A DNA stretch of 64,000 bases. It comes from Kiritimatiellia bacterium (GTDB lineage: Bacteria; Verrucomicrobiota; Kiritimatiellia; RFP12; UBA1067). Below the pieces are notes generated by a model, which saw nothing but the letters and a program-made list of their open reading frames with translations, was not told where the DNA came from and ran no database searches. The DNA is taken from the NCBI GenBank assembly GCA_045545855.1, contig JAZQBR010000203.1:1264-65263 (forward strand), written 5' to 3'. The position numbers were made by a program, and so were the translations under genes. Within the stretch, counting starts at the first letter, position 1, and the number at the start of each line of letters is the position of its first letter. This document shows positions 42,005 to 63,043 of the stretch, piece after piece.

Positions 42005-43714
42005 TCAATTGTTTAGGGCTTCCATCTTCGGCTTTATGCGCTTCCAATGGCGGTTGACGACATTTGTAAACGTGTGAAGATTCTTGTACGCCCCGCGATT
42101 GGGATGTTCGGACTTCCAGCCGTCGTACACCTGTTTTGCAATGGCATTGACGTCAATGCCGCCAGGGTTTTTCTTTGCCTTTTCTTCAAGCTTGTCCATC
42201 GCGAACTTAAGCATTTCAGGATACTTGACCATCGGTCCCCGCCTTTTGGAATCAACCTGGGATGGCGTATCTTGCTCTGCCTTGATGAACTTGATGTCCT
42301 TGCCTTGCTGAAGCTGGGTGCGCCGTATCATGTCCTGCTTGTCGGCCATGCGGGAAACCATTGCATGGGTCTTGAAGCAAATCTCCGCAATCTCAGGATC
42401 TATTGCCGATCCGACGGAACTGTTGCCGAGAGACGGTTCTTTGCCCCTCGCATGAAGCCCGTTTTCATAATATCCAAGGCTCAAGTCAAACTCCGTCATG
42501 CTGCCCATGAATCTGTCATAGGCATCGCCGACAGGCTCCATCATGAAATACCCTTGCCCGACGACTCCCATCATCTTTCCAAAATAGCCGTTGCAACTGC
42601 ATTGCAACGAACGCAGCCACGACAACACTTCCGCAGGGAGATTGAAGTGCTCAAGCAATTCAAGGAGGTTGGAGAAAAGACCATGCGCGCTTTCGACAAG
42701 GTTCCCGTGCATTGATGAGAAGTCATTATCCATCTCATAGAAAGAAGCGTGCAACACCTCTATTGCCCTGCGCAAGAAGGAACACTTGTCAAACACATTG
42801 AACAGACGAATCTTGGGAATCTGCAAGTCCTCGCCTCTAAAGAACTTTTCCGTATTCTTTACGTCCTCAATGGCAAGACATGTCGAGAACTGCAAAACTA
42901 TTGCCGACAGCTCCATGCAACGGATTGCCGCATCGCCGCTGAACTCCGCTTCAAGCAGCCGCTCTTCAACCATTGCATAGCGATTTGAATGTGGCGTTTC
43001 CCGTAAGCGATTCTTGCGGAAATCATCAAAAGAACCGTATGCATAGGCAGAATCCAGTTCATCCTCATAGTCTCGCATGGCTTTGTTCATCTTGCCAAGC
43101 GACTCGTTTACGACGAATGCCCACACTCTGAAAATGATGGGGACTTCGCTCTCATGCACCCATTCCCATTCGCAGAACAGCGTGACAAGAAACCGCAAAT
43201 GGCAGAATGCCCTCCTGATCATGGACGGCGGATACCAATATCCAAGCCACATTTGCAATTCCTGAAGCAAAGAATCGGTCAACATATAAAGCCGATTGGG
43301 ATTGTCTGCGTAACGCTTTTTCGCAATTTGAAACTCCGCTTGCGACGATTCATCGGCGAGAAGCCATATCGCCTTGCCAACAATCCCCTGCGGAGCGAAC
43401 AAATCACTTGGGCGTTCCTCTCCCATATTAAACGGCCCCGCGCCAACAAGCGGTCTATGCGCCGTCAAAAGATTCTCCTCGAAACTGCGCAGAACGGCAA
43501 GCGCAAAACCTTCCAACCCGTGTTTCGCCACACCGCCGCCGGTTTTGCAGCAGGAGTTTATTCCAGCCCGCAACTTGGCAAAATCCGAATCCGCAGACCG
43601 AATCGTCCTCTCGAACGCAGTCACGCCAGCCGGCTCCATGTCCGTAGCAATCATTTTACAGTCATGTCGGCAAGTGCGGCCCGACATAGCCGATGTATAA
43701 CTTCTTGGCGTCAA
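42005..43714 (-). CDS. Hypothetical protein (569 aa), last gene of a four-gene defence-like operon
   Basis: Long ORF with coding composition and no recognised motif. Overlaps the upstream gene by ~50 bp. Confidence 0.5.
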   Translation of the reverse strand: MTPRSYTSAMSGRTCRHDCKMIATDMEPAGVTAFERTIRSADSDFAKLRAGINSCCKTGGGVAKHGLEGFALAVLRSFEENLLTAHRPLVGAGPFNMGEERPSDLFAPQGIVGKAIWLLADESSQAEFQIAKKRYADNPNRLYMLTDSLLQELQMWLGYWYPPSMIRRAFCHLRFLVTLFCEWEWVHESEVPIIFRVWAFVVNESLGKMNKAMRDYEDELDSAYAYGSFDDFRKNRLRETPHSNRYAMVEERLLEAEFSGDAAIRCMELSAIVLQFSTCLAIEDVKNTEKFFRGEDLQIPKIRLFNVFDKCSFLRRAIEVLHASFYEMDNDFSSMHGNLVESAHGLFSNLLELLEHFNLPAEVLSWLRSLQCSCNGYFGKMMGVVGQGYFMMEPVGDAYDRFMGSMTEFDLSLGYYENGLHARGKEPSLGNSSVGSAIDPEIAEICFKTHAMVSRMADKQDMIRRTQLQQGKDIKFIKAEQDTPSQVDSKRRGPMVKYPEMLKFAMDKLEEKAKKNPGGIDVNAIAKQVYDGWKSEHPNRGAYKNLHTFTNVVNRHWKRIKPKMEALNN

Positions 43715-44645
43715 AATCAGGCAGAAAATGCATTCTTTCTTTGATATTCAATCTCAAATGGGGCCAACAATCGCGGCGCACTCCATTCCAATGGAATGTA
43801 CGGGAATTGGGATATTGATGTTTTGTTGAATCGCTCTCATCCATTATCAAAGACTTTGTCGAACCGTATTCTTTCCGCAAATCGCGAGATCCGCCATTCA
43901 GGCATATCTCAAATGCAGAATGCAATCTTATCAGGTCGCCGACCAGATGCCCGTTGGCTACATCAAAAGCAGGCAATTGCGCTATCACTTCGTCAGAAAA
44001 CGACAGATACGGCCACAAGTTTTCGCAGACATCCAATATTGCCTGTCCGGAATGAACTTCTTTGACAATCCTTTGGGTTACAGGATCGCTAAATAATTCT
44101 GCTCCCGCCCCAGTGGCAACGACATCGACAGCCTCCTGCCTTATGTCAATTTCGCCACTCTCGAGCAACTCGTGCTTTTCGAGCAAAAACCCGCCCCCCA
44201 TGGAAAAGCGTCCGACATTGAGAGCAATGGACGGCAAGCGATTTAGATACGACAACAAGAATGCAGGTATATATGTTGATCCGCCGCCATATATCTGCTC
44301 GCCTTCAAAAAACAAATCAAAATCGCAATAGCCGACAAAAGAATCCGGAGCCTCTTCGAACGCAGGCGTTTTTGACATTGCAATCTTGAAGAAGCCCTTG
44401 AGCATTCGTTCTTGCGAATTCAATGCATTTTTGTCAAACAGCCACTTTCGAAATGTAGTTCCCGAATAACACACCCGTTCATATATGCCATGCGATTTGG
44501 CTACAGCGTACGAAAAACCGATTCTATTCATGGCGTCCATCACACACTTAAGCTCCTGCATCCTGGACAGAAACTCTTCGTGCGAGACACAAGCCACAAA
44601 GGACAACTCATTCAAAATCTGAGGATATGGAATCCTTAACGCCAT
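43662..44645 (-). CDS. Hypothetical protein (327 aa)
   Basis: Long ORF, 17 bp downstream of the ATPase gene. Gly-rich loops (YGGGSTYIP, SMGGGF). No family recognised. Confidence 0.5.
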   Translation of the reverse strand: MALRIPYPQILNELSFVACVSHEEFLSRMQELKCVMDAMNRIGFSYAVAKSHGIYERVCYSGTTFRKWLFDKNALNSQERMLKGFFKIAMSKTPAFEEAPDSFVGYCDFDLFFEGEQIYGGGSTYIPAFLLSYLNRLPSIALNVGRFSMGGGFLLEKHELLESGEIDIRQEAVDVVATGAGAELFSDPVTQRIVKEVHSGQAILDVCENLWPYLSFSDEVIAQLPAFDVANGHLVGDLIRLHSAFEICLNGGSRDLRKEYGSTKSLIMDESDSTKHQYPNSRTFHWNGVRRDCWPHLRLNIKERMHFLPDFDAKKLYIGYVGPHLPT

Positions 44646-44661
44646 CTATAAACCCTGAATA

Positions 44662-45801
44662 TCAAATCAACTCGGCAATCGTATTCTCGTATTCATCAAA
44701 GAACCCCTCCGGCCAAACATCTATCGCGCCCGACTGAAGTATGCGCGGAGTGGCGATTTCGACATCCCTCTCGCTATCGCCCTTGGCGACAAAATTCAAT
44801 CTGACATCCGTGCCGCGCACGATGTCCTTCTTCACGGCAAGCCTCATGCCATTCAAAATATGATCGCTATGCGTCTCTACAACAACCTGTATGCCATTTG
44901 CCGCAACTTTTGAAAGGAACATTCCCATGGCTACCTGTCCCTTAGGATGAAGATGCGCCTCTGGATTTTCAATCAGCGCCAGACCTCCTTTCGGCAATGC
45001 AAGCAGAGCGACAAATATGGGGAGCGAATATGTCAATCCAAAACCTACATTTGAGGGACTATAGTCCAGTCCATAACCGTCTTCGCCCTCAAGAAAGGAA
45101 AAGGCCAGCCATGCACTCTGCTGCCGTTCGTTCATATCGGCAGACACTCTCATCTGCCGTCCCATCTTGCTCATCCATGCAGACACTTGCTGGATGAGCG
45201 AGTCGCCGTAAATGCCGTCCTGATCTGCAAGCAATTCCGGTATATGGAGTTTCGACAACTGTCTGTCGGCGAGATGCCATGCGCAAAACTCTCCCTGATT
45301 GCCAAGAAAGTTAAGGCGGGCCTCTTCCGGCGTTGGTGCTTTGAAGTTCGTCCGAGGACCGACTCGATCAGCGCACAGGTAGGCGAAATCTTCTGAGAAC
45401 AGGGGAAGCGACCTGTCTGTCGCCGACAACGTCTCGATTTCAAGAATCTGCTTCTGGATACGCATAGGCGCGTCGGTTTCATGCCGATACGCAGACAATT
45501 CCGCTTGTGCGGCCCCGCAATCGAACTCCACTGAAACCGCCACATTGCCATGTGCGCTGTTTATTCTGCCATAGGCATACAACAAATCATCGACCTGTCC
45601 GAACGAAACAAGACGCCCGTTTACAGGAAGCAGGGAATCGCCTTCGCGCCGTTCAAGCATCGACTGCCGCAAAAACAACAAGGCCTGCAACACCGTGCTC
45701 TTTCCTACTGCATTCATGCCAGCGAAAACGGTCAATGGAGCAAAATCCAATTCCGCCTCACGATAACATTTGAAGTTGCGCAGCTTAAGCTTGCTAACCA
45801 T
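44662..45801 (-). CDS. AAA_15/AAA_21-type ATPase (SMC/ABC-like split Walker motifs; DUF3696-like C-terminus)
   Basis: Walker A AGMNAVGKSTVLQAL. Walker B/H-loop LALIENPEAHLHPKGQ...VVVETHSDHIL. Overlaps the DUF262 gene by 8 bp. Confidence 0.7.
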   Translation of the reverse strand: MVSKLKLRNFKCYREAELDFAPLTVFAGMNAVGKSTVLQALLFLRQSMLERREGDSLLPVNGRLVSFGQVDDLLYAYGRINSAHGNVAVSVEFDCGAAQAELSAYRHETDAPMRIQKQILEIETLSATDRSLPLFSEDFAYLCADRVGPRTNFKAPTPEEARLNFLGNQGEFCAWHLADRQLSKLHIPELLADQDGIYGDSLIQQVSAWMSKMGRQMRVSADMNERQQSAWLAFSFLEGEDGYGLDYSPSNVGFGLTYSLPIFVALLALPKGGLALIENPEAHLHPKGQVAMGMFLSKVAANGIQVVVETHSDHILNGMRLAVKKDIVRGTDVRLNFVAKGDSERDVEIATPRILQSGAIDVWPEGFFDEYENTIAELI

Positions 45802-47074
45802 TTAAAGTCTCCTCTATGATCTGACGAACAGCACCAAACCGCTTGTGAACGCGTGCGACGGAACCCGTCCCCTGTGTTACAGATTGCAGAAATTCATTGT
45901 CGTTGGACATCTTCGCCCTGAAGCGTTCTATCAAGACATCTTTGCGCGCCAGAAGAACTTCCCGCTCTGTCGGCGTCAACCGGTGCAGATTCACGCTCCA
46001 CGCCTCAAACAGCGACTTGTTTACCGGGCTGCGCGTCTGCCGGCCGACATCCATCTTTCTGAAAGCCAACTTCCCCAGAAGGTCATGCGCATAGCGCATC
46101 GTGCATGTAAACTCGTCTATTATCGCACGAATGGGCGCACTGTCCAATGTCTGTCCGGCATGGACTTCATTGAATGAACGCATCGCGTCGTTGAGAAAAC
46201 TGTTGTAGTCGTTCTTCCTGTAATCGGAAATGTCTATGTCTTTGAAGGCGAGATACCGCATGATACACTCTCTGTCTGCCATGCGCTTTGCCTGAATGCC
46301 GTTCATTGTCGCTTCTTTGAAGGCGTCGCTTTCAGAAAGATGCTTGAGCAACATCGTGCATATGCCCATGTTCAAGGCATGGCGAATTTCCTGCGGGCTC
46401 AAGGGTTCGCCTCCTGTATTGATGCGCCGGAAGATATCGAATTTGACTCGTGGCGGCGTTCCTGGCAATATGATGTAGCATACGACCTCCGTCTCGTCGA
46501 TTCGTCGTTGCAGGGATGGCGGAAGCTGTGAATAAGTTTTGCCCTCCATGTTGTGAAGGAATTCAAGCCCGGTCAACTTCAGTTCCCCGTTGACGAAATC
46601 GCGTATCGTCGAAAGTCGCTGCAAACCATCGATGACAAGCCAGCGGTCGTCGTCCGATGCGTCAAAGTAGAAAGCCGGTATCGGTATGCGGATCAGCAAC
46701 GATTCTATAAGCCGGCTTTTGGCGACCTTGGACCAAACGCCTTCGTTCCGCTGAAAATCGGGATGTAGTTCAATCGCATTGGATTTTATCCTGCGCAGCA
46801 ACAAATCCAGAACCGTTGTCTTTGGCTGCACCTGTATGAACGCTGGATTGAACGGTTCGTCTATTCGCGTACCGCCCTCCGAATCATCTTCGATGGACTC
46901 GTCCTCTTCCTGAAAAGAAACGGCTGCTTTCCCCTTTTCTTCATCTGTTTCAAGATATTCCATAAATCTGCTCCCGCTATCGTTTTTCTTGGACTTGGAT
47001 TCTGTGGTCAGGACAAGCCATTTGTCAGTAACATCCTTTTTCCGCATTCCAAGTCCGTTGTCTCGGATATGCAA
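45794..47074 (-). CDS. DUF262 (ParB/GmrSD-N-like) domain protein; likely 3' portion of a frameshifted GHKL-DUF262 fusion gene
   Basis: DUF262 hallmarks PDFQRNEGVWSKVAKSRLIESLLIRIPIPAFYF...VIDGLQRLSTI. The N-terminus begins HIRDNGLGM, a GHKL G1-box. The ORF track start is TTG. Confidence 0.65.
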   Translation of the reverse strand: MHIRDNGLGMRKKDVTDKWLVLTTESKSKKNDSGSRFMEYLETDEEKGKAAVSFQEEDESIEDDSEGGTRIDEPFNPAFIQVQPKTTVLDLLLRRIKSNAIELHPDFQRNEGVWSKVAKSRLIESLLIRIPIPAFYFDASDDDRWLVIDGLQRLSTIRDFVNGELKLTGLEFLHNMEGKTYSQLPPSLQRRIDETEVVCYIILPGTPPRVKFDIFRRINTGGEPLSPQEIRHALNMGICTMLLKHLSESDAFKEATMNGIQAKRMADRECIMRYLAFKDIDISDYRKNDYNSFLNDAMRSFNEVHAGQTLDSAPIRAIIDEFTCTMRYAHDLLGKLAFRKMDVGRQTRSPVNKSLFEAWSVNLHRLTPTEREVLLARKDVLIERFRAKMSNDNEFLQSVTQGTGSVARVHKRFGAVRQIIEETLNG

Positions 47075-47292: not shown

Positions 47293-47641
47293 AATATTAT
47301 ACCATTTCGCTGAAGTCCGGTCAATGGGACGCGAAACAGTTTATTGCTTCAAACTGTTGCATTGTTTTCCCGCACAAGATCAATCTCTAACTTGTTCAAC
47401 GCACATTCCCACGAGAGCATAATCCCTCCCGAAAACTTTCCGCAACAGTTTTCCTGTTGCATGGCGCGACAATGACGCATGGTCAGGCAGATTGTCGCGC
47501 GTTGCAGATGTGACACATTTTCCGTTCTCCACGACTTTCCAATGACCGCCTCGGGGCTGGCCGGGAAAGTCTCGGTTGACGCTGTCGGCCAGACCTGACG
47601 GCAATGAACAGAACAACACAATCCCGAAAGGAACCCGGAAA

Positions 47642-48106
47642 ATGGAAACAACACGGAACAAAGACAATCGCGGCTATGAGCTTGACGCCCTTGCCCGAAA
47701 AATGGAACGCGCCGCAGAAGTTGATTATATCCGCTGGGCGAACGCAAAGAAACGCCGCGCATGGACTGCCGGGGCATTGCGTCTCGACGACTGCCTGTTC
47801 GATGAAAACGGGGATGAGAGGGAAAACTCCCTGCTTTCCGACAACGGCAGAGGTGCCGAGTTGATTCGCCGCTGCGGGGAACCTGCGCCAAAGGCGAACA
47901 ATGCTTGGCGTAAGGAGTTCCGCCGCGTATTTTCGACCCTGAACGCTGTCGAGCAAGGCATTGTCCTCGCGTTGTCGAAGGATTCCCGCCCTCAAGTCGC
48001 CGCCCGCATGGCCTGGACGAACCGCATGCGCGTATATCGCACCATCGCGAAATTGCGCAAATTGCTCGCAACCGCCCATTCCCTCTGGCTGCGCCGCTGG
48101 GAATAA
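47642..48106 (+). CDS. Putative DNA-binding regulator with sigma-70 region-4-like HTH
   Basis: Internal ATG of ORF 47576..48106 (METTRNKDNRGYELDALARKMERAA...). C-terminal EQGIVLALSKDSRPQVAARMAWTNRMRVYRTIAKLRKLL resembles a region-4/LuxR-type HTH. Higher GC than neighbours. Confidence 0.35.
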   Translation: METTRNKDNRGYELDALARKMERAAEVDYIRWANAKKRRAWTAGALRLDDCLFDENGDERENSLLSDNGRGAELIRRCGEPAPKANNAWRKEFRRVFSTLNAVEQGIVLALSKDSRPQVAARMAWTNRMRVYRTIAKLRKLLATAHSLWLRRWE

Positions 48107-48242
48107 AAAACTTTCGCAGATGCCGCGTTGCACATCTCTCGGTTTCTGCGATTGTCAAATGAACACCTCTGTCGGCGATGCAGGACGCCAGGTGGCATCC
48201 CGCCGGCGAGGTTGAAGAAAGCACAAATAAAGGAATAAAGTT

Positions 48243-48977
48243 ATGGCTGCTGTTAAGCCTCAATTGAAATACCGCGTCGTCAATGGCTACAACCCAAAGA
48301 CGCGCGGAACCTGCAAGCGCCCCCAGATCACGGAACGCGAAACCTACTACCTCGATCAGGTGGTGCAATTCGCGCTGGACAACGGATTCGTCCGTGGCCA
48401 GTTCCAGGACATGAAGGGTGCGCTCAACGGGTTCATCGAATGCATCCAGTACCTCGGGCTGACCGGCAAGGCCGTCTCGCTCAACGACTGGCTCAGAGTC
48501 CATTCCGAACTCACGGGAACGGTCGGCGAAGACTACCAGCTCACGTCCGGCAACGACTTGCGCGTCCGCATCCAGGCTCTCAAGGAACTGAAGACGAGCG
48601 TGGACAAGTTCAGCTGGACGAACGTGAGCGACACGGGCGTTCTGCCGAAGATCGATTCGCTCATGTACGTTGGCGCTCCGAAAAGCGGTGAAATCAAGAA
48701 GTCTCTGGCCATCATCGCCACGGGACGCAATCTTGCGTTCAACGCCGCCTTGGGCGACACCGTGACGCTTATCTGGACGGAAGGCGACGAGGCCAAAACC
48801 GTTACCCTCACGCCTGCCGAGAGCGACTATTCGCACATGAAGTTCAACTGGCCGTCTGCATTGGCTGACGTGCCGGACGGAACCGAAATTACGTTCACCT
48901 TCACTCTCCACGGCGGAGTGGAAGGAGGCGCGGCCCATACGGCCACGAAAAGCGTGAAGCTTCTCGCTGCCGCATAA
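48243..48977 (+). CDS. Hypothetical protein (244 aa)
   Basis: Clean ORF with strong codon bias. The antisense 579-aa ORF 47349..49088 is an artefact of this high-GC block. Confidence 0.55.
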   Translation: MAAVKPQLKYRVVNGYNPKTRGTCKRPQITERETYYLDQVVQFALDNGFVRGQFQDMKGALNGFIECIQYLGLTGKAVSLNDWLRVHSELTGTVGEDYQLTSGNDLRVRIQALKELKTSVDKFSWTNVSDTGVLPKIDSLMYVGAPKSGEIKKSLAIIATGRNLAFNAALGDTVTLIWTEGDEAKTVTLTPAESDYSHMKFNWPSALADVPDGTEITFTFTLHGGVEGGAAHTATKSVKLLAAA

Positions 48978-48986
48978 GCTAATTAT

Positions 48987-49061
48987 CTCACGCAAAGTCC
49001 GTGACGTACGCAAAGTTTCATCCCTCAGGCGCCTTTGCGTCTTTAGCGGACTTTGCGTGAG
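48987..49061. repeat. Palindromic element of ACGCAAAG units (tctcacgcaaagtccg...cgcaaag ... ctttgcgt...cggactttgcgtgag), 10 bp after the stop codon
   Basis: Perfect 15-bp outer inverted repeat and inner CGCAAAG/CTTTGCG pairs. No downstream U-tract. Confidence 0.5.
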
Positions 49062-49100
49062 CGATCTATCCATACCACCAACCACCAACGACTAACGACC

Positions 49101-49784
49101 ATGAAAACTATCGTCAAAAAAGTAAAGTTGCTTCCCTGGTCCAACCCCTATATCACCGACGGCCTCATCGCCATGTGGGATGGCGAATGGAACGCAGGCA
49201 TCGCCAAGCATGATCCCACTGCAACGACTTGGACCGACCTCGTCAACGGGTGCGTCGGCATCAAGGCCGCTGACACTGTGCAATGGCTCGACAAGGCCTG
49301 TTTTGTCGATAACGGATACTTCATTGTCGAAACGCTCCCTGATTCCATCAAAGACGCCATGAACGCCGACAACTTCACATGGGAAGTCTGCAGATACTAC
49401 AGAGGCGGCAACGGCCAATACACGGCCCTCGGCTCGGCTGCGGTGCGAAACGAGTTCTGGGCGAGCGGCCCGAACAACGCCAACTCCTACCTTTCGTGGC
49501 ATTCGCCATCTTTTACGAGCTACTGCGGCGGTGGCGGAGGAAAAGTCAAAACTACGCATTCTTTCACTGTTTGCGGCGATACAATCATTGGCTACAGCAG
49601 GGGTGTTCCGTATGCAACCCAGACTTTCACTGCAATCGGTTCTATCGACGCGGCAAGACTCCTGCTCGGCGGCAAGCGCGGCATCGTTGCCGACATCTAC
49701 TGCATTCGCATATACAACCGCGCCCTCTCAACCGCCGAAATCGCAGCCAACTTCGCTATCGACAGAATGAGGTTCGACCTGTGA
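49101..49784 (+). CDS. Hypothetical protein (227 aa)
   Basis: Internal ATG (MKTIVKKVKLLPWSNPYITDG...) of ORF 49053..49784, consistent with a beta-rich secreted or structural protein. No motif recognised. Confidence 0.5.
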   Translation: MKTIVKKVKLLPWSNPYITDGLIAMWDGEWNAGIAKHDPTATTWTDLVNGCVGIKAADTVQWLDKACFVDNGYFIVETLPDSIKDAMNADNFTWEVCRYYRGGNGQYTALGSAAVRNEFWASGPNNANSYLSWHSPSFTSYCGGGGGKVKTTHSFTVCGDTIIGYSRGVPYATQTFTAIGSIDAARLLLGGKRGIVADIYCIRIYNRALSTAEIAANFAIDRMRFDL

Positions 49785-49789
49785 GCAAA

Positions 49790-50356
49790 TCACCACTGCT
49801 TTGCCAATACAAAATCTTCGAACTCGGCAGGCGTATATATTTCGAAATTTTTAACCACCTGACCGACTACCGTTCTAGGGTCGTTATTAACGTCAGAGCA
49901 AGATGAATTCATACAATCTGCGACCGACTTCTTCCTAATCTGTTCAAGTCGCTTTTCTACTTCGGCTCCAACAAGAACAAAAGTCAGATGGTGTCTGCAT
50001 TGATCCCATGTGAGAACATTATGTTCGACCAGAGCCATTGCGGAGTCGCATGCCTTGCGAAACGTGTCGGCAATATTAACACCTCCAGTTTTGAACTCAA
50101 TCAAGTAATATTCCAAACCATCGACAATCAATGCATCAGCAGATTTACCCTTAAACACGAATTTACCATCGCGCCAATAATCTTTTACTAAATCAAAATC
50201 AATTGCTTGCACCTTTCCGGCATTTGATGTCGGTGCAACACAATATTTCTTCTCTGCCCCTGGTTTGGCCTTGGTCGCAGACAACTCCGCCAGTGACTTG
50301 CGGAAGTCCTCATTCCGCAAGTCATCAGAAAGTCCATCAAAATCGCTCGGTTTCAA
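49790..50356 (-). CDS. Hypothetical protein (188 aa), third gene of an ATPase operon; possible PD-(D/E)XK-like core
   Basis: Start overlaps the ATPase stop by 4 bp. The segment ALIVDGLEYYLIEFK has a D...ExK-like arrangement (weak). Confidence 0.5.
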   Translation of the reverse strand: MKPSDFDGLSDDLRNEDFRKSLAELSATKAKPGAEKKYCVAPTSNAGKVQAIDFDLVKDYWRDGKFVFKGKSADALIVDGLEYYLIEFKTGGVNIADTFRKACDSAMALVEHNVLTWDQCRHHLTFVLVGAEVEKRLEQIRKKSVADCMNSSCSDVNNDPRTVVGQVVKNFEIYTPAEFEDFVLAKQW

Positions 50357-51684
50357 TTTTGAACTCCATCATCAGCAGAAGACTTTTCCAATTCAGCAAC
50401 ATTCATGCGTTCTAATTCCAGCTCGCGCATGGTTTTTGCGAATTTGCGATACATGCTTGACGTGTCATTTGAAATATCATCAAATTCCACACGCCCTGAA
50501 TCATCAATTTTCTTCGGTTGATAGACCTTGAGAGTTTCGCCTTCGCCATTCTCCGCTCTCTTTTTACGCGCAGAAAGCTCAAGCGACTGCAGAAAATAAG
50601 GACTGTGTGTGGTCACTAGAACAGTCAAATCATATATTCGCTGAAGTTCAACGATTACATCGGCGAACAAAACCTGCAATTCAGGATGAAGATGGTTTTC
50701 CGGCTCATCCAAAATCAAAACGTCCTTCCGCTTCAACAAATTGGCATCTATCATCAAACGCAGCAACGCCAACATTTTTATGCCCATTGAAAGATTGGCT
50801 GAATTAAGAGGCTTCTGCATTCCGGGAATGCCAACTTCCAGTTCTCCGTTTTTGCCTAATGAGAATTCACCGGAGAAATATCCATCAATCATTTCATAGA
50901 TTGTCGCTAATTCCTTATCTGCGACACGACGAGCAATACTACTTCTTGGTCTTGCACGACGAATTCTCGACGCTAATTCTCTGCTTATTGGATCCCCAAT
51001 CGTCCACGAAGACATCCTGAACGATGTTCCCAAGGCATCCATAATTAATGGTGTTCCAATAAACCAAGCATCATTGCGCAAAAACTCTTCAACCACCATA
51101 GGCTGCGCATTGGTATTCCATTTTGCGACAATCTTTCGGCCCTTGACAGTAATCGATATCTCACTCTCACCGGTAAAATCAAAATAGTTGGGAAGAAATT
51201 GATTGTTGAAATAACGATTTAGGTCGGCCTGAACAGCATCGTGAAAGAGAACCATCTCCGAAATTCCACGGGCCTTTTTGATTTGTAATTTTATATCAGC
51301 AACTATATCACGCTCGGAATCCTGCCTCAAGCGCGAAGATTCATCTGCCAAAAAGGAACTCTGCCTGAGGGTTCCAGGCCGATAATAAAAACGCAATCTC
51401 CGCCACAACTCATCATCATCAATAGAGGAATCAGAAGAAAACCATTCATCACGAAATATCCTACGGGTGAGATTTGTATTGCGCAAATTGAGCGATTCAA
51501 GCACAAATCCCGCACGAGCATCGAAAAATCCTTCTTTGAGATTTGCAAAGGTATGAAAAATGGAATACAATACTTTCCCGACCGTGCTTTTGCCCCTGTC
51601 ATTGTCGCCAATGATTGCTGTAAGTCCCTGGCAGACCAAATTTGCATTGCTTATTTTCGCGATATTGTTTATGGTCACATTCAT
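50353..51684 (-). CDS. AAA_15/AAA_21-type ATPase (ABC/SMC-like)
   Basis: Walker A IIGDNDRGKSTVGKVL. Walker B/D-loop VLILDEPENHLHPELQ. H-loop VLVTTHSPYFL. 443 aa. Confidence 0.7.
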   Translation of the reverse strand: MNVTINNIAKISNANLVCQGLTAIIGDNDRGKSTVGKVLYSIFHTFANLKEGFFDARAGFVLESLNLRNTNLTRRIFRDEWFSSDSSIDDDELWRRLRFYYRPGTLRQSSFLADESSRLRQDSERDIVADIKLQIKKARGISEMVLFHDAVQADLNRYFNNQFLPNYFDFTGESEISITVKGRKIVAKWNTNAQPMVVEEFLRNDAWFIGTPLIMDALGTSFRMSSWTIGDPISRELASRIRRARPRSSIARRVADKELATIYEMIDGYFSGEFSLGKNGELEVGIPGMQKPLNSANLSMGIKMLALLRLMIDANLLKRKDVLILDEPENHLHPELQVLFADVIVELQRIYDLTVLVTTHSPYFLQSLELSARKKRAENGEGETLKVYQPKKIDDSGRVEFDDISNDTSSMYRKFAKTMRELELERMNVAELEKSSADDGVQN

Positions 51685-51687
51685 GTC

Positions 51688-52287
51688 TCACCTCCAACCA
51701 TTTTTCGCGACGAAAGCAGCAACTTCATCGTCAAAGAGGACATAAGCCTTCTCACAAATCAACCCTGATAATCGATACTCTTGGGGCGCTCTTTTCTTTC
51801 TTTTTATATCGGAATATTCCCGCAAATCATACTCCCATGCATCTTCTACGAGTCGATCAAGCGATCCTGCCATAAAACTTGTAGGATCCAAAGTCTCAGA
51901 CCGCGCGAACTTGCCGGCATCACGCGAACCAGATTCCCTAATCTGCAGATAGAAGAATCCATGGCGCAATGCACCAACGCGGCATTGCCCAGTTTGGCAC
52001 ATACCTATGACCAAATTGTAGAATCGACGCAACCTATGTATTTGATTGACTGTAGAACAATAGGATTCCACAGCATAAACACCCGCACTGTTTGAATGAA
52101 TTGCCGGGACAGTTTCTCGATGAAATTGATGCGCTGACGGCACCAAGCCCTTAAGATACCCTGATGCATTAATACAGGAAATGGTTGCCAATGCTGCATG
52201 GGACTGCACCCCCAGCGCACCAAATGTCGATGCCAATATTGGGTTTGACAATCCGTACGGAGCCGCACTGAAATCGTTAGGAGTCAT
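51688..52287 (-). CDS. Hypothetical protein (199 aa), first gene of an ATPase operon
   Basis: Ends 4 bp before the ATPase start. Contains Cys at GMCQTGQC. No family recognised. Confidence 0.5.
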   Translation of the reverse strand: MTPNDFSAAPYGLSNPILASTFGALGVQSHAALATISCINASGYLKGLVPSAHQFHRETVPAIHSNSAGVYAVESYCSTVNQIHRLRRFYNLVIGMCQTGQCRVGALRHGFFYLQIRESGSRDAGKFARSETLDPTSFMAGSLDRLVEDAWEYDLREYSDIKRKKRAPQEYRLSGLICEKAYVLFDDEVAAFVAKNGWR

Positions 52288-52585
52288 TGCATTCCACCTT
52301 CAACCTTTTTAGCAATTGCACAGCATACGCCCACAGCGACTGCAATACCACCCCCAAAAAGATGCCAACGCATCCTTCCCACTAACATTTGTCCACATGA
52401 TTGTGGCTCTGCTATGCATATACTCTATCATTGCCAATTGATTTGCCGCATAGTTTACCATTTTTCGTTTTCGCTGACAAGTGGGGCATCGGTTTTTTTT
52501 GCATCCGCGATTGCCACCGAAATCGCTATAACCTCTACCAGCGACGGGATGTGGTTGGCTCTGGCACTTTGACTTATCCATCCGC

Positions 52586-58446: not shown

Positions 58447-59202
58447 TTAAATGCGCTCTTCAACTCCACGGAAGTGTACGTTCAACTCATGAAGCGGTGC
58501 AAGAAGTGTTCCCATTGAGGTCCCTTGCGTCATTTTGGCAAAGGCATTGACATCCTTCGGGAAGCACTTGCCCCCGTAACCGAACTTGCCGTCTGGACCG
58601 GGGACGTAGGTATGCGTGTCGTTGATGTAGCCAGAGAGCAATACGCCTGTGTGAACCTTCGCCCAATCGCCGCCCATTTTCTCGACATACTCCTTCGCCG
58701 CGTTGAAGTATGTGACCTTATATGCTCCGAACACATTGTGAATATACTTTGTAAGCTCGGCCTCCAGCGGCGACATAACTGTAAACTTCTTCCCTGGAAA
58801 CACCTTGATAAGAAGGTCGACCGCACCAGTGAACACCATCGTCTGCTTCTTGAAGTCTTCGATGTGCGTCCGCTCGGTCAGGAACTCCGGCATGTAGCAG
58901 ACCTGATGCCCCGTCTCTTTCGAGAGCATGTCACTCGTCCCCGGCAGAATCGTCGTCCTCACGAATACCGGCACATTCGGCAGTTTGCGAATCAGCTCTT
59001 TCATCAGCGTCAGATTCTGTGTCCCGTCATCTTCCGTCGGAACATGGATTTGCAGAAACGCGATATCGATTTGCGAAAGGTCGTCATTCATTCCCTTCGG
59101 CGGATCACTAACAAAGACTTTCGCGTCCTTGTTGTTCTCCTCCAGCCACGCTTTGAGGGCTCCACCCACAAAACCACAGCCAATGATACCTACGTTAATC
59201 AT
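58447..59202 (-). CDS. UDP-glucose/GDP-mannose dehydrogenase family protein, short form (251 aa; lacks the usual C-terminal UDP-binding domain)
   Basis: N-terminal Rossmann GIIGCGFVGGAL and catalytic-Cys motif GYGGKCFPKDV. The gene ends 6 bp from the wzx start. Confidence 0.6.
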   Translation of the reverse strand: MINVGIIGCGFVGGALKAWLEENNKDAKVFVSDPPKGMNDDLSQIDIAFLQIHVPTEDDGTQNLTLMKELIRKLPNVPVFVRTTILPGTSDMLSKETGHQVCYMPEFLTERTHIEDFKKQTMVFTGAVDLLIKVFPGKKFTVMSPLEAELTKYIHNVFGAYKVTYFNAAKEYVEKMGGDWAKVHTGVLLSGYINDTHTYVPGPDGKFGYGGKCFPKDVNAFAKMTQGTSMGTLLAPLHELNVHFRGVEERI

Positions 59203-61592: not shown

Positions 61593-61655
61593 CTCGTTTG
61601 TCTATTCGTAAAATTTTGTTCAAATAAGCAAAAAACGACCCCGCGCGTTGCTTAA
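61593..61655. repeat. ~60-bp direct repeat, left copy (gtctattcgtaaaattttgttcaaataagcaaaaaacgaccccgcgcgttgcttaatt)
   Basis: A near-identical copy lies at 63117..63180. The two bracket the DUF4143 ATPase gene. Confidence 0.65.
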
Positions 61656-63043
61656 TTGGCAAGCATCTCTCGACCTAGATTGTACGCAAAACGCGATGTT
61701 GAAACAAAAGTCAGCTCCACCGGACCCACGTGCTTCACGCCTTCTTGCGAACGCGATGTGACAACCATCCGGTTGAGACCGTTTCGTTCGGCAAAGTTGA
61801 CCGCCTCTTTGATCTCGGCTGGATGATCAAAAGGTCCGTCAGACCATTTCACTTCGAACATTGAATCGGCCCGCTGCGTGCCCGCGTCTATCCGCACAAA
61901 GTCGACCTCGCGATTTTCTCGGCCGACTTTCCAATTTGCATAGCGCCAGGACATGCGCTCTTCGCCAATACCCAGTTGCGCGGCTACGGCCGTCTCTATG
62001 ATATGCCCGAAATACACATCATCAACGGCTCTTGCCGGCTGGAACATGGCCGCTCTCAACGACGGATTTGTCAAATACAACTTGAACTGCATGGCGCGTT
62101 TGAGCGACAGAGCGTTCAAGTCAACCCTGTCATGCCGCACAATCAAGAAAGCTTCCTCCAGGTATCTAAGCAGATTTGCCACCGTGTGCTTTGTCAGGCC
62201 CGACCCTTGAGAAAGCCCCTCATACGACTGAACCATGCCGGAATGAAACGCCACATAAGAAAAAAAGGCCTGCAAATCACGAACATCGTCTATATGGTAA
62301 AGGCTCGGCAAATCGCGAAGCAGAACTTTATCGACTATATCGCGCTGGATGAACTGCCCGGGGTTGCCCCTCACCGTCTGGTTTGCGACAAGTTCAGGAT
62401 ATCCACCGTAGTTTACATAGTCTATGAAGCATTTGTTCGCCGCCTCCATCGACTCGAACATGCGCTCGTCTTCGCCAATCATCAAGCAGTATTCGTAAAA
62501 GCTCAACGGCGCCAGCTTAAGATCGGTAAAACGCCCGGCCCCGCTTTCTCTCGCGCCCTTCACAAGAACGGATGCCGCCGAACCCGATGCAGTGAAGCGT
62601 ATATTGGGATATGTATCGGTAAGCGTTTTCAGCGATGTCTCCCAATCCTTCATATACTGTATTTCGTCAAAGAAGACGAACAACCGGTCTAGCCTTGGGT
62701 CGCGCCCGGTGAATCTGCACGCTTCTCTTAACAGTTCTTCAAGTTCGCTGCCATGATATACAGGCACATCTATCGGCAGAAAGATTATGTTCTTGGCAGG
62801 TATATTATCCTTAGTAATAAGCCGATGGATGGCGTGTTGCATAAGCCAGGTTTTACCAACACGCCTGGGCCCCATGAGCAAGAGCGCCCTTTTAACCCCG
62901 TCAAGCTTCAGAAAGCTATAGAATTTGTCAAGAAACCGTCTTGGCGTGACTGAGGTATAGCCTTGATCGACAATCCCAGTCTCCCACCAGGGATTGTCCA
63001 GCTTGATGCGATCGACAAACATTTCTTTTGATAACATAATCAC
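61652..63043 (-). CDS. AAA-family ATPase with DUF4143 C-terminal domain (archaeal-ATPase-like, AAA_14)
   Basis: Walker A LLLMGPRRVGKTWLMQH, Walker B RLFVFFDEIQYMKDW, and the C-terminal DUF4143-like region. 463 aa. Confidence 0.7.
   Translation of the reverse strand: MIMLSKEMFVDRIKLDNPWWETGIVDQGYTSVTPRRFLDKFYSFLKLDGVKRALLLMGPRRVGKTWLMQHAIHRLITKDNIPAKNIIFLPIDVPVYHGSELEELLREACRFTGRDPRLDRLFVFFDEIQYMKDWETSLKTLTDTYPNIRFTASGSAASVLVKGARESGAGRFTDLKLAPLSFYEYCLMIGEDERMFESMEAANKCFIDYVNYGGYPELVANQTVRGNPGQFIQRDIVDKVLLRDLPSLYHIDDVRDLQAFFSYVAFHSGMVQSYEGLSQGSGLTKHTVANLLRYLEEAFLIVRHDRVDLNALSLKRAMQFKLYLTNPSLRAAMFQPARAVDDVYFGHIIETAVAAQLGIGEERMSWRYANWKVGRENREVDFVRIDAGTQRADSMFEVKWSDGPFDHPAEIKEAVNFAERNGLNRMVVTSRSQEGVKHVGPVELTFVSTSRFAYNLGREMLAN

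Follow-up and report, generated by a model that had tools for sequence, protein, structure and literature searches.

A three-gene ABC ATPase-nuclease cassette with a probable inactive nuclease paralog in a surface-polysaccharide locus of a Kiritimatiellia bacterium

The analysed window, a 64,000-nucleotide stretch of contig JAZQBR010000203.1 from a Kiritimatiellia bacterium, contains a compact cassette of three genes, here called A, B and C. It is part of a long surface-polysaccharide locus on the minus strand. Gene B encodes an ATP-binding cassette (ABC) ATPase, gene C a predicted PD-(D/E)xK nuclease, and gene A a paralog of C with a degenerate active site. ABC ATPase-nuclease systems, including Septu, PARIS, Gabija, WonAB, HEC-02 and PD-T4-4, form a major and partly understood class of bacterial immunity. 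A central question in this class is how the ATPase silences, and then releases, the nuclease.

The open reading frame (ORF) list of the window confirms the three tightly packed minus-strand genes described in a first-pass annotation of this DNA (Table 1). That annotation gave junctions of 4 bp and a 4-bp overlap. The overlap between the stop codon of B and the TTG start codon of C (TTGA) is correct, but the spacer between the stop codon of A and the start of B is 3 nt long (51685-51687), not 4. The sequence GGAGG at 51691-51695, inside the 3' end of A, is the Shine-Dalgarno sequence of B. Both the TTG start and the overlap of C are also found in two related loci, L081 and L084 (loci outside the window are given L numbers throughout). 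The G+C content of the cassette is 43.8%, compared with 51.5% for the window and 62.4% for its first 9 kb. The low value pointed out in the first-pass annotation is therefore real, but it is not particular to the cassette, because the adjoining polysaccharide genes are likewise low at 45-46%.

A, B and C are real genes, far beyond chance ORFs. Proteins with approximately 70-80% identity are encoded in the same order on other contigs, and the pairwise ratios of nonsynonymous to synonymous substitution rates (dN/dS) are 0.15-0.18 for A, 0.08-0.10 for B and 0.16-0.21 for C. These values point to purifying selection on each gene, the two small ORFs included. When the window is compared with two contigs whose flanks differ from its own, nucleotide homology begins no more than 15 bp from the start of A and stops within 8-28 bp of the stop codon of C. 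Homology is limited to A-B-C, and the cassette is therefore a discrete block of about 2.5 kb. Its three genes are inherited and exchanged together.

The promoter is presumably located in the intergenic region upstream of A, where one promoter-like site is present at 52480-52452. The scan for promoters and terminators was no richer than shuffled sequences (6 found, 5.6 expected), and conservation with the upstream regions of L081 and L084 is gone beyond about 15 bp. An Rfam scan returned sub-threshold noise only, with no non-coding RNA (ncRNA) accompanying the cassette, and no repeats flank the cassette ends.

The product of gene B is predicted to be an OLD-type ABC ATPase, with the motifs for ATP binding and hydrolysis intact and in order. 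It matches the Pfam families AAA_21 (7e-19, 69.5 bits, cut-off 27) and AAA_15 (5e-18, 66.4 bits, cut-off 32.1), as well as the PADLOC ATPase models AriA, NsnB, HEC-02A, PD-T4-4_A, PtuA, GajA and Old (~1e-9 to 1e-20), in agreement with its earlier assignment to ATPases of the PtuA, AbiLi and AriA kind. The PADLOC matches cover the C-terminal half only and none is specific, with AriA, NsnB, HEC-02A and PD-T4-4_A all at about 1e-19. B also matches phrog_14430 (3e-36), and a search of the PDB returned weak, distant relatives only (ABC-F, PtuA and OLD). The split arrangement of Walker A, Walker B, D-loop and H-loop, which had been recognized in the first reading of the sequence, is borne out by 96-100% conservation of the motif residues in 70 family ATPases (Table 1), in which Q337 is also essentially invariant. 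About 260 residues separate the Walker A and signature motifs. A role of B as the ABC-transporter subunit of a glycan exporter was considered and rejected: the AAA_15 and AAA_21 matches are well above threshold, ABC_tran reaches 22 bits against a cut-off of 25 bits, and the partner proteins A and C, as read by eye, have no obvious hydrophobic stretch.

Direct homologs of C are rare, numbering 17 among 5.8 billion proteins. We performed an iterative search over the ORFs of 80 genome loci that encode distant relatives of B. A C homolog is found immediately downstream of the ATPase and on the same strand in at least 62 of the 80 loci, the two genes usually being between a 4-nt overlap and 9 nt apart. 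The loci span Bacteroidota, Proteobacteria, Elusimicrobia, Campylobacterota and others, and a profile of the C family retrieves further members from the full database with E-values down to 1e-44. C belongs to a widespread ATPase-linked nuclease family.

Four residues, D74, E87, K89 and K101, are invariant in 53 C-family members and in all 17 C sequences of the joint alignment described below. They form the core SADALIV...YYLIEFK...RK, a PD-(D/E)xK signature. A D...ExK arrangement had been suspected in this protein. The motif is real, but the conserved Asp is D74 of SADALIV and not, as had been supposed, the Asp of 'IVDG'. In the AlphaFold2 model of C (predicted local distance difference test score, pLDDT, 84.5; predicted template modelling score, pTM, 0.85), D74 precedes the strand 75-79, while E87 and K89 are located in the strand 82-89, which is the canonical PD-(D/E)xK placement. 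Foldseek searches of the PDB and BFVD with this model give top matches that are almost all PD-(D/E)xK nucleases: Bse634I, Cfr10I, the Can2 nuclease domain, Nt.BspD6I and the small subunit of this enzyme, bunyavirus cap-snatching endonucleases, Hjc and LmuA. Probabilities reach 0.96-0.98, yet no E-value is below 5e-3. Two C-family members touch the Pfam family L_protein_N, itself a PD-(D/E)xK domain, and none matches Pfam NERD. The C protein of the window has no match at meaningful E-values in Pfam, PADLOC, NCBIfam or PHROG, and the same holds for its A protein; neither the C profile nor the A profile retrieved any sequence from the PDB. The invariant motif and the confident model indicate that C is a small PD-(D/E)xK nuclease, with activity predicted from both.

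A has 13 close homologs. An exhaustive search of 1.84 billion representative sequences with a hidden Markov model (HMM) places the A family in only 14 clusters, and none of the 14 members matches Pfam or PADLOC. A jackhmmer search seeded with the A protein of the window alone never left the A family. However, an HMM built exclusively from proteins in the A position matches the C proteins of the same clade (3e-18 to 2e-7), including the C protein of the window (4e-11), as well as those of the nearest two-gene loci L001 (8e-8) and L008 (3e-4). Profile-profile alignment of A and C with hhalign gives 95% probability and an E-value of 2e-8 over 146 columns, and BLASTP between A and C proteins from divergent cassettes reaches 3e-11 over 195 aa. 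The hhalign signal appears only once divergent A members are included; with shallow alignments (A2 vs A3) the relationship goes undetected, at a probability of 1.4%.

A joint alignment of 17 C and 22 A sequences is gap-free through the core and indicates how the two families differ at the active site. Of the residues invariant in the 17 C sequences, D74 is replaced by P, R, H or A in 21 of 22 A sequences, K89 by Y, R, H, A, F or Q in all 22, and Asp is absent at the position of D55 in 20 of 22. E87 corresponds to E or D in 20 of 22 A sequences and K101 to R in 18 of 22. At the position of D104, where 16 of 17 C sequences have D, the A family has an invariant Asn (N91). The A family has conserved motifs of its own, namely RRxYN, WEY and SG..KAY. 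Judging from these alignments, A and C are paralogs over their full length; A lacks both the catalytic Asp and the catalytic Lys but remains conserved and constrained.

In every A lineage that could be placed, the gene immediately downstream of A encodes a B-type ATPase, and a gene for a C-type protein comes next. The order A-ATPase-C is kept in L081-86, L087, L125-129 and L136-138. Identity to the A protein of the window is 37% in L087, about 31% in L125 and L126 and about 22% in L127-L129. The third gene of L125-L129 was confirmed as a C-family member, and L136, L137 and L138 are further loci of this type. This conserved order on other contigs supports the initial reading of the three genes as one operon. 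A genome scan with a single A sequence found one short contig.

By contrast, an A-like sequence is present within 1.5 kb upstream in 0 of 80 two-gene loci. In a neighbor-joining tree of 78 ATPases (Poisson-corrected, 100 bootstraps), the ATPases of the three-gene loci are monophyletic in 100 of 100 bootstraps. Their sister group consists of the two-gene loci L001 and L008, the same loci whose C proteins are detected by the A-only profile. A, B and C diverge together, with A evolving fastest and B slowest. A is confined to one clade. The simplest history is that the nuclease gene was duplicated once, at the root of this clade, and that its upstream copy then became non-catalytic.

Table 1. Genes, sequence motifs and neighbouring defence genes of the cassette, in coordinates of the window.
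Feature	Position	Strand	Description
Gene A	51688..52287	-	199 aa, ATG start; predicted catalytically inactive paralog of nuclease C
Gene B	50353..51684	-	443 aa, ATG start; predicted OLD/AAA_15-AAA_21-type ABC ATPase (proposed sensor/regulator)
Gene C	49790..50356	-	188 aa, TTG start; predicted PD-(D/E)xK nuclease (proposed effector)
Degenerate active-site region of A	52015..52107	-	P61 ... E74-S-Y76 ... R88-F-Y-N91
Walker A of B	51583..51609	-	G26-D-N-D-R-G-K32-S-T34; G26, N28, G31, K32, S33, T34 100%
ABC-signature-like motif of B	50776..50796	-	N297-L-S-M-G301-I-K303; G301, K303 100%, N297 96%
Walker B and D-loop of B	50683..50709	-	D326-E-P-E-N-H-L-H-P334; all nine residues 100%
H-loop of B	50599..50607	-	H360-S-P362; H360, S361 100%
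Catalytic core of C	50054..50137	-	D74 ... E87-F-K89 ... K101
Upstream intergenic region	52288..52585	-	Shine-Dalgarno-like AAGGTGGA at 52293-52300; presumed promoter
NsnA	45794-47074	-	PADLOC 2e-135, Pfam GmrSD_N
NsnB	44662-45801	-	PADLOC 1e-97
NsnC	43662-44645	-	PADLOC 3e-26

The polysaccharide locus of the window encodes a GT1 glycosyltransferase, an FrhB-like Fe-S protein, a pyruvyl transferase, a nitroreductase, a flippase, a UDP-glucose dehydrogenase and an ATP-grasp/deacetylase protein. Nearly all genes between 13 and 60 kb are minus-strand genes of this large locus. The G+C content of the window is ~62% at 1-9 kb, ~50% at 10-50 kb and 41-46% at 50-61 kb, and the region looks like a variable, horizontally acquired glycan island. 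One UDP-glucose/GDP-mannose dehydrogenase ORF (58447-59202, minus strand, 251 aa) contains a partial N-domain and the central domain, lacks the C-terminal domain, and may be truncated or frameshifted. An ATPase with AAA_14 and DUF4143 matches (5e-29 and 5e-17) is encoded at the far end of the locus (61652-63043, minus strand).

A complete Menshen system (43662-47074, minus strand) is located 2.7 kb from the cassette. Between the two, the minus-strand locus is broken by a plus-strand block at 47576-49784, which consists of three ORFs of 176, 244 and 243 aa with a G+C content of about 55%. The first-pass annotation regarded this block as phage-like. The description is unsupported, as the block has no PHROG match and no Pfam match above the curated threshold; the only Pfam signal is a sub-threshold Laminin_G_3 match in the last ORF (E 0.018). 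A 579-aa minus-strand ORF that overlaps the block (47349-49088) is probably spurious.

Three-gene cassettes are located in glycan loci, and are co-directional with the flanking genes, in six of the seven informative contexts (the window, L081, L084, L125, L128 and L137). In L137, only 46 and 8 bp separate the cassette from its pyruvyl-transferase and epimerase neighbours. In L081, RhuM and DUF4145 adjoin the cassette. In L128 and L137, the flanking epimerase is 96% identical, and the segments carrying the epimerase and glycosyltransferase genes (L128 4240-5849, L137 8410-10019) share 92.5% DNA identity, whereas the cassettes are only 23-35% identical in protein. The combination of near-identical flanks and divergent cassettes therefore indicates that divergent alleles replace each other at one hotspot. 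L128 has an extra gene of 494 aa between C and the epimerase. An intergenic element of 42-53 bp is present in at least four copies in L081 (7172-7213, 7760-7811, 14157-14209 and 19640-19681), and a copy with 83-86% identity is found just upstream of the cassette in L084 (9865-9919). This element could be a REP-like (repetitive extragenic palindromic) or terminator-like repeat of the host lineage.

The surroundings of the two-gene relatives are unambiguously those of defence genes. Some relatives are nested in type 1 BREX loci, where they separate the methyltransferase from PglZ, some are located beside an integrase, an AAA_21+RloB pair and Fic, and some are on IMG/VR viral contigs. In Oligella, a two-gene relative is in tandem with a WonAB-type pair. 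Relatives are nearly absent from phage and plasmid collections, where one unannotated faecal phage and four partial plasmid matches were found. In the type 1 BREX loci L130 (4905-10473) and L131 (4905-10570), the pair is located between a 602-aa ORF of the MmeI/Eco57I methyltransferase type and an ORF of 590-593 aa that has no Pfam match. The summed length of the two ORFs is roughly what we take to be the expected length of the PglX methyltransferase, and the pair may be inserted within pglX or between its split halves. Tandem arrangements of ABC ATPase-nuclease pairs also occur. In the Oligella locus (L037 4176-7810), the WonAB-type pair is directly followed by the B/C-type pair, L079 (2388-6138) apparently contains two consecutive pairs of an ATPase and a C-like protein, and in L132-135 (L132 3419-8202) the B/C pair is followed by DUF6933 and an AAA_21+RloB pair.

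Taken together, we consider it probable that the three genes make up a conflict system of three components, most likely directed against phages, in which A is a dead paralog of C maintained under constraint. We infer the defence role and the mechanism from the genomic context and from the precedent of WonAB, HEC-02 and PD-T4-4. By analogy with these systems and with Septu and PARIS, a dimer of B would hold the nuclease on its C-terminal extensions and keep it silent. An infection cue, sensed through the variable inserts of B or through A, would shift the ATP-dependent state of B, which would then license C. C would cut an essential host RNA or the nucleic acid of the invader, and the infection would be aborted. 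The place of A in this scheme is less certain. It might fill one of two nuclease positions and thereby form an asymmetric A:C pair on the B dimer (B2), as a non-catalytic partner that sets the stoichiometry or guards against autoimmunity. Alternatively, A might supply recognition of the target or the trigger.

Several points weigh against this interpretation. The three-gene clade is found mainly in glycan-biosynthesis loci and not in classical defence islands, and these glycan contexts are probably not independent, as they represent the same hotspot in related genomes. A and C match no PADLOC model. The AlphaFold2 model of A, calculated from a 13-sequence alignment, has a pLDDT of 37, and the fold of A rests on homology to C; in this low-confidence model, the helices and strands match the positions of those in C after a 13-residue offset. 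The assembly of A, B and C into one complex, the triggering cue and the nucleic acid that is cut (DNA or RNA) are features that we infer.

A more specific version of the defence model is possible, though doubtful. A could be a working regulatory or sensor subunit of an obligatorily asymmetric B2:A:C assembly, with its fast-evolving surface reading the cue or setting the nuclease dose, while the cassette would be embedded in and co-transcribed with glycan operons and its alleles swapped under phage pressure. If true, asymmetric B2:A:C would represent a control principle undescribed for ABC ATPase-nuclease defence systems, and the defence allele would be expressed together with the phage-receptor glycan type that accompanies the cassette.

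The cassette could also be an addiction or toxin-antitoxin (TA)-like selfish module, in which C is a toxin neutralized by A, B or both, and which stabilizes itself or the hotspot and its glycan locus. This we regard as unlikely. The cassette is a discrete moving unit of 2.5 kb that carries no other cargo and persists at one locus within a lineage, Pfam describes AAA_21 as 'putative AbiEii toxin, Type IV TA system', and it is plausible that a dead paralog such as A acts as a blocking mimic of C. On its own, WonB is toxic if it exceeds WonA; however, a simple antitoxin model is excluded for WonAB, since the toxicity of WonB needs ATPase-active WonA (PMC12137116). Moreover, the occurrence of the two-gene relatives in BREX and defence islands, in the same orientation, is the pattern that was used to discover validated defence systems (bioRxiv 10.1101/2024.01.29.577857). 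The concepts of abortive infection and TA overlap, and telling them apart is in part a question of emphasis.

A function tied to the surface-polysaccharide locus, either in recombination and replacement of glycan cassettes or in regulation of the locus, would fit the co-directional position of three-gene cassettes inside glycan loci and the short gaps in L137. We find it very unlikely, because the two-gene sisters are located elsewhere, in BREX loci, integrase islands and viral contigs, and the glycan contexts are in part one hotspot in related genomes. Variable glycan loci are generally hotspots for accessory genes. In addition, A, B and C do not resemble glycan enzymes or transporters, and no obvious membrane-spanning stretch is seen when the sequences are read by eye.

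It is scarcely plausible that A is an unrelated neighbour and that the working system consists of B and C only. Most of the family is a two-gene pair without A, and A evolves fastest of the three proteins. However, A is homologous to C, it is found immediately upstream of the ATPase in every sampled lineage down to about 22% identity, and it is part of the transferred block with a dN/dS of about 0.15-0.18. It also ends 3 nt from B and contains the Shine-Dalgarno sequence of B. Finally, a housekeeping DNA-repair or recombination complex of the SbcCD, RecF/RecN or SMC type, suggested by weak SMC_N and DUF2813 matches of B and by the combination of an ABC ATPase with a nuclease that is the logic of SbcCD and Rad50-Mre11, can be set aside as barely credible, given the very patchy distribution (14 A clusters among 1.84 billion proteins), the low G+C content, the replacement of whole cassettes between 96%-identical flanks, an SMC_N score of 19.8 bits against a 40-bit cut-off and, although no dedicated coiled-coil prediction was made, the size of B, which at 443 aa with about 260 residues from Walker A to the signature motif has no significant SMC_N match.

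The anti-phage conflict system thus remains our preferred interpretation, in keeping with the defence-like operon proposed in the first-pass annotation. In the related WonAB system, whether the outcome is safe or toxic depends on the nuclease-to-ATPase ratio (PMC12137116). In the cassette described here, selection has retained a probably dead nuclease copy as a third subunit over deep divergence, which would make it a natural experimental handle on stoichiometry and activation. The analysis also defines, with C, a widespread ABC-ATPase-linked nuclease family that is missed by current Pfam and PADLOC models, gives an identity to the formerly opaque A family, and documents wholesale allele replacement of a putative defence cassette inside surface-polysaccharide loci.

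Among described systems, ABC ATPases of the OLD clade control a nuclease effector in Septu (PtuAB), PARIS (AriAB), Gabija, OLD and AbiL/RloAB, as proposed here for B. However, the nucleases of these systems are of the HNH (PtuB), TOPRIM/DUF4435 (AriB, GajA) or RloB type. No Pfam or PADLOC match to HNH, TOPRIM/DUF4435 or RloB is found in A, C, the 53 C-family members or the 14 A-family members, and the earlier statement that the partners of the ATPase are not of the RloB, HNH or TOPRIM kind is thereby upheld. A retron-associated Septu-like system was also considered and rejected, as there is no reverse transcriptase gene and no ncRNA. Lamassu (LmuA, LmuB, LmuC) is likewise a three-gene system, in which an ABC/SMC ATPase is joined by a nuclease effector and by a third, small subunit. 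Its effector is often of the Cap4 PD-(D/E)xK type, and LmuA is among the weak fold matches of C. In contrast to the cassette, LmuB is a long coiled-coil SMC protein and LmuC is not a paralog of the effector, and no specific LmuB match for B is found among the top PADLOC matches.

Pairs of active and inactive nuclease paralogs are known from XPF-ERCC1, Mus81-Eme1, the subunits of tRNA-splicing endonuclease and the heterodimeric R.BspD6I. In these, a catalytic nuclease has an inactive paralog as obligatory structural or recognition partner, as we propose for C and A. Both BspD6I subunits are among the Foldseek matches of C. The pairs differ from A and C in that they are unrelated to them in sequence and lack an ABC ATPase partner, and an A:C heterodimer is here only a proposal.

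WonAB belongs to the 'OLD-ABC ATPase + novel REase' operon family, in which REase denotes a restriction endonuclease (Krishnan et al. 2020; Adams et al., Nat Microbiol 2025, PMC12137116). It acts by abortive infection, with translation shut-off and without degradation of the chromosome, and needs both proteins and their catalytic residues. WonB is toxic only when in excess, and then only with ATPase-active WonA. It is predicted to dock on WonA's dimerized C-terminal extensions, and an essential host RNA has been suggested, but not identified, as its target (all PMC12137116). In both WonAB and the B/C pair, the gene for an OLD-type ABC ATPase precedes that for a small PD-(D/E)xK protein whose core reads D...E-x-K-G/T/N. 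H360 of B is located 33 residues past the Walker B Glu, which is the spacing of E300 and H333 in WonA. The cores of the C family and of WonB/Novel REases are distant homologs, which hhalign aligns with 89% probability and an E-value of 2e-6, over 68 columns only. The Oligella ATPase of the B family (L037 6001-7197) is itself listed as 'OLD-ABC ATPase' in Supplementary Table 5 of PMC12137116; the REase call at this locus falls on a 146-aa protein next to the other ATPase and not on the C-like protein beside the B-family ATPase. The B protein of the window aligns with WonA only over its C-terminal 120 residues (E 1e-7), the C-family HMM gives only 1-16 bits against WonB and Novel REases, and C exceeds WonB-type proteins by 30-50 residues and has a conserved N-terminal region (C39, F54, D55) that they lack. 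WonAB has two genes and no dead paralog.

HEC-02 combines an ABC ATPase with a NERD-like PD-(D/E)xK nuclease, both genes being required (Payne et al., bioRxiv 10.1101/2024.01.29.577857). It shares this pairing with the B/C family, and both occur nested within larger defence systems. For several family ATPases, HEC-02A ranks first or second among the PADLOC matches (up to 5e-30), and HEC-02B models weakly match 3 of 53 C-family members (best 8e-6). These models are PDLC04217-04229. The model PDLC04146 (344 positions) is also labelled 'HEC-02B' and matches ATPases, not nucleases, and HEC-02B matches therefore need to be read by model number. The C protein of the window has no HEC-02B match, and HEC-02 has two genes. 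The match of B to HEC-02A (7e-19) covers residues 296-377 only and is on par with those to AriA, NsnB and PD-T4-4_A; for scale, the neighbouring NsnB matches its own model at 1e-97.

PD-T4-4 consists of a P-loop/ABC ATPase and a PD-(D/E)xK nuclease that form higher-order complexes (Vassallo et al. 2022; bioRxiv 10.1101/2025.07.10.664194). The pairing is the same, and PD-T4-4_A is a top PADLOC match for the family ATPases, up to 4e-27. However, the B protein of the window matches PD-T4-4_A only partially (9e-19, residues 295-371), none of the 53 C-family members matches a PD-T4-4_B model, and PD-T4-4 has two genes.

The closest described systems are thus WonAB, HEC-02 and PD-T4-4, all of them two-gene systems validated by experiment, and not Septu, AbiL or PARIS. 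Assignment of all three genes to a known system, the result that would have counted against the first-pass annotation, was not obtained. Because the nuclease models of these three systems miss C and the ATPase matches are partial, the B/C pair is best placed, by sequence comparison, as a sister family that shares their architecture and lies outside any named system. On the same grounds, A-B-C would be a three-component derivative of the B/C pair with an added pseudo-nuclease subunit.

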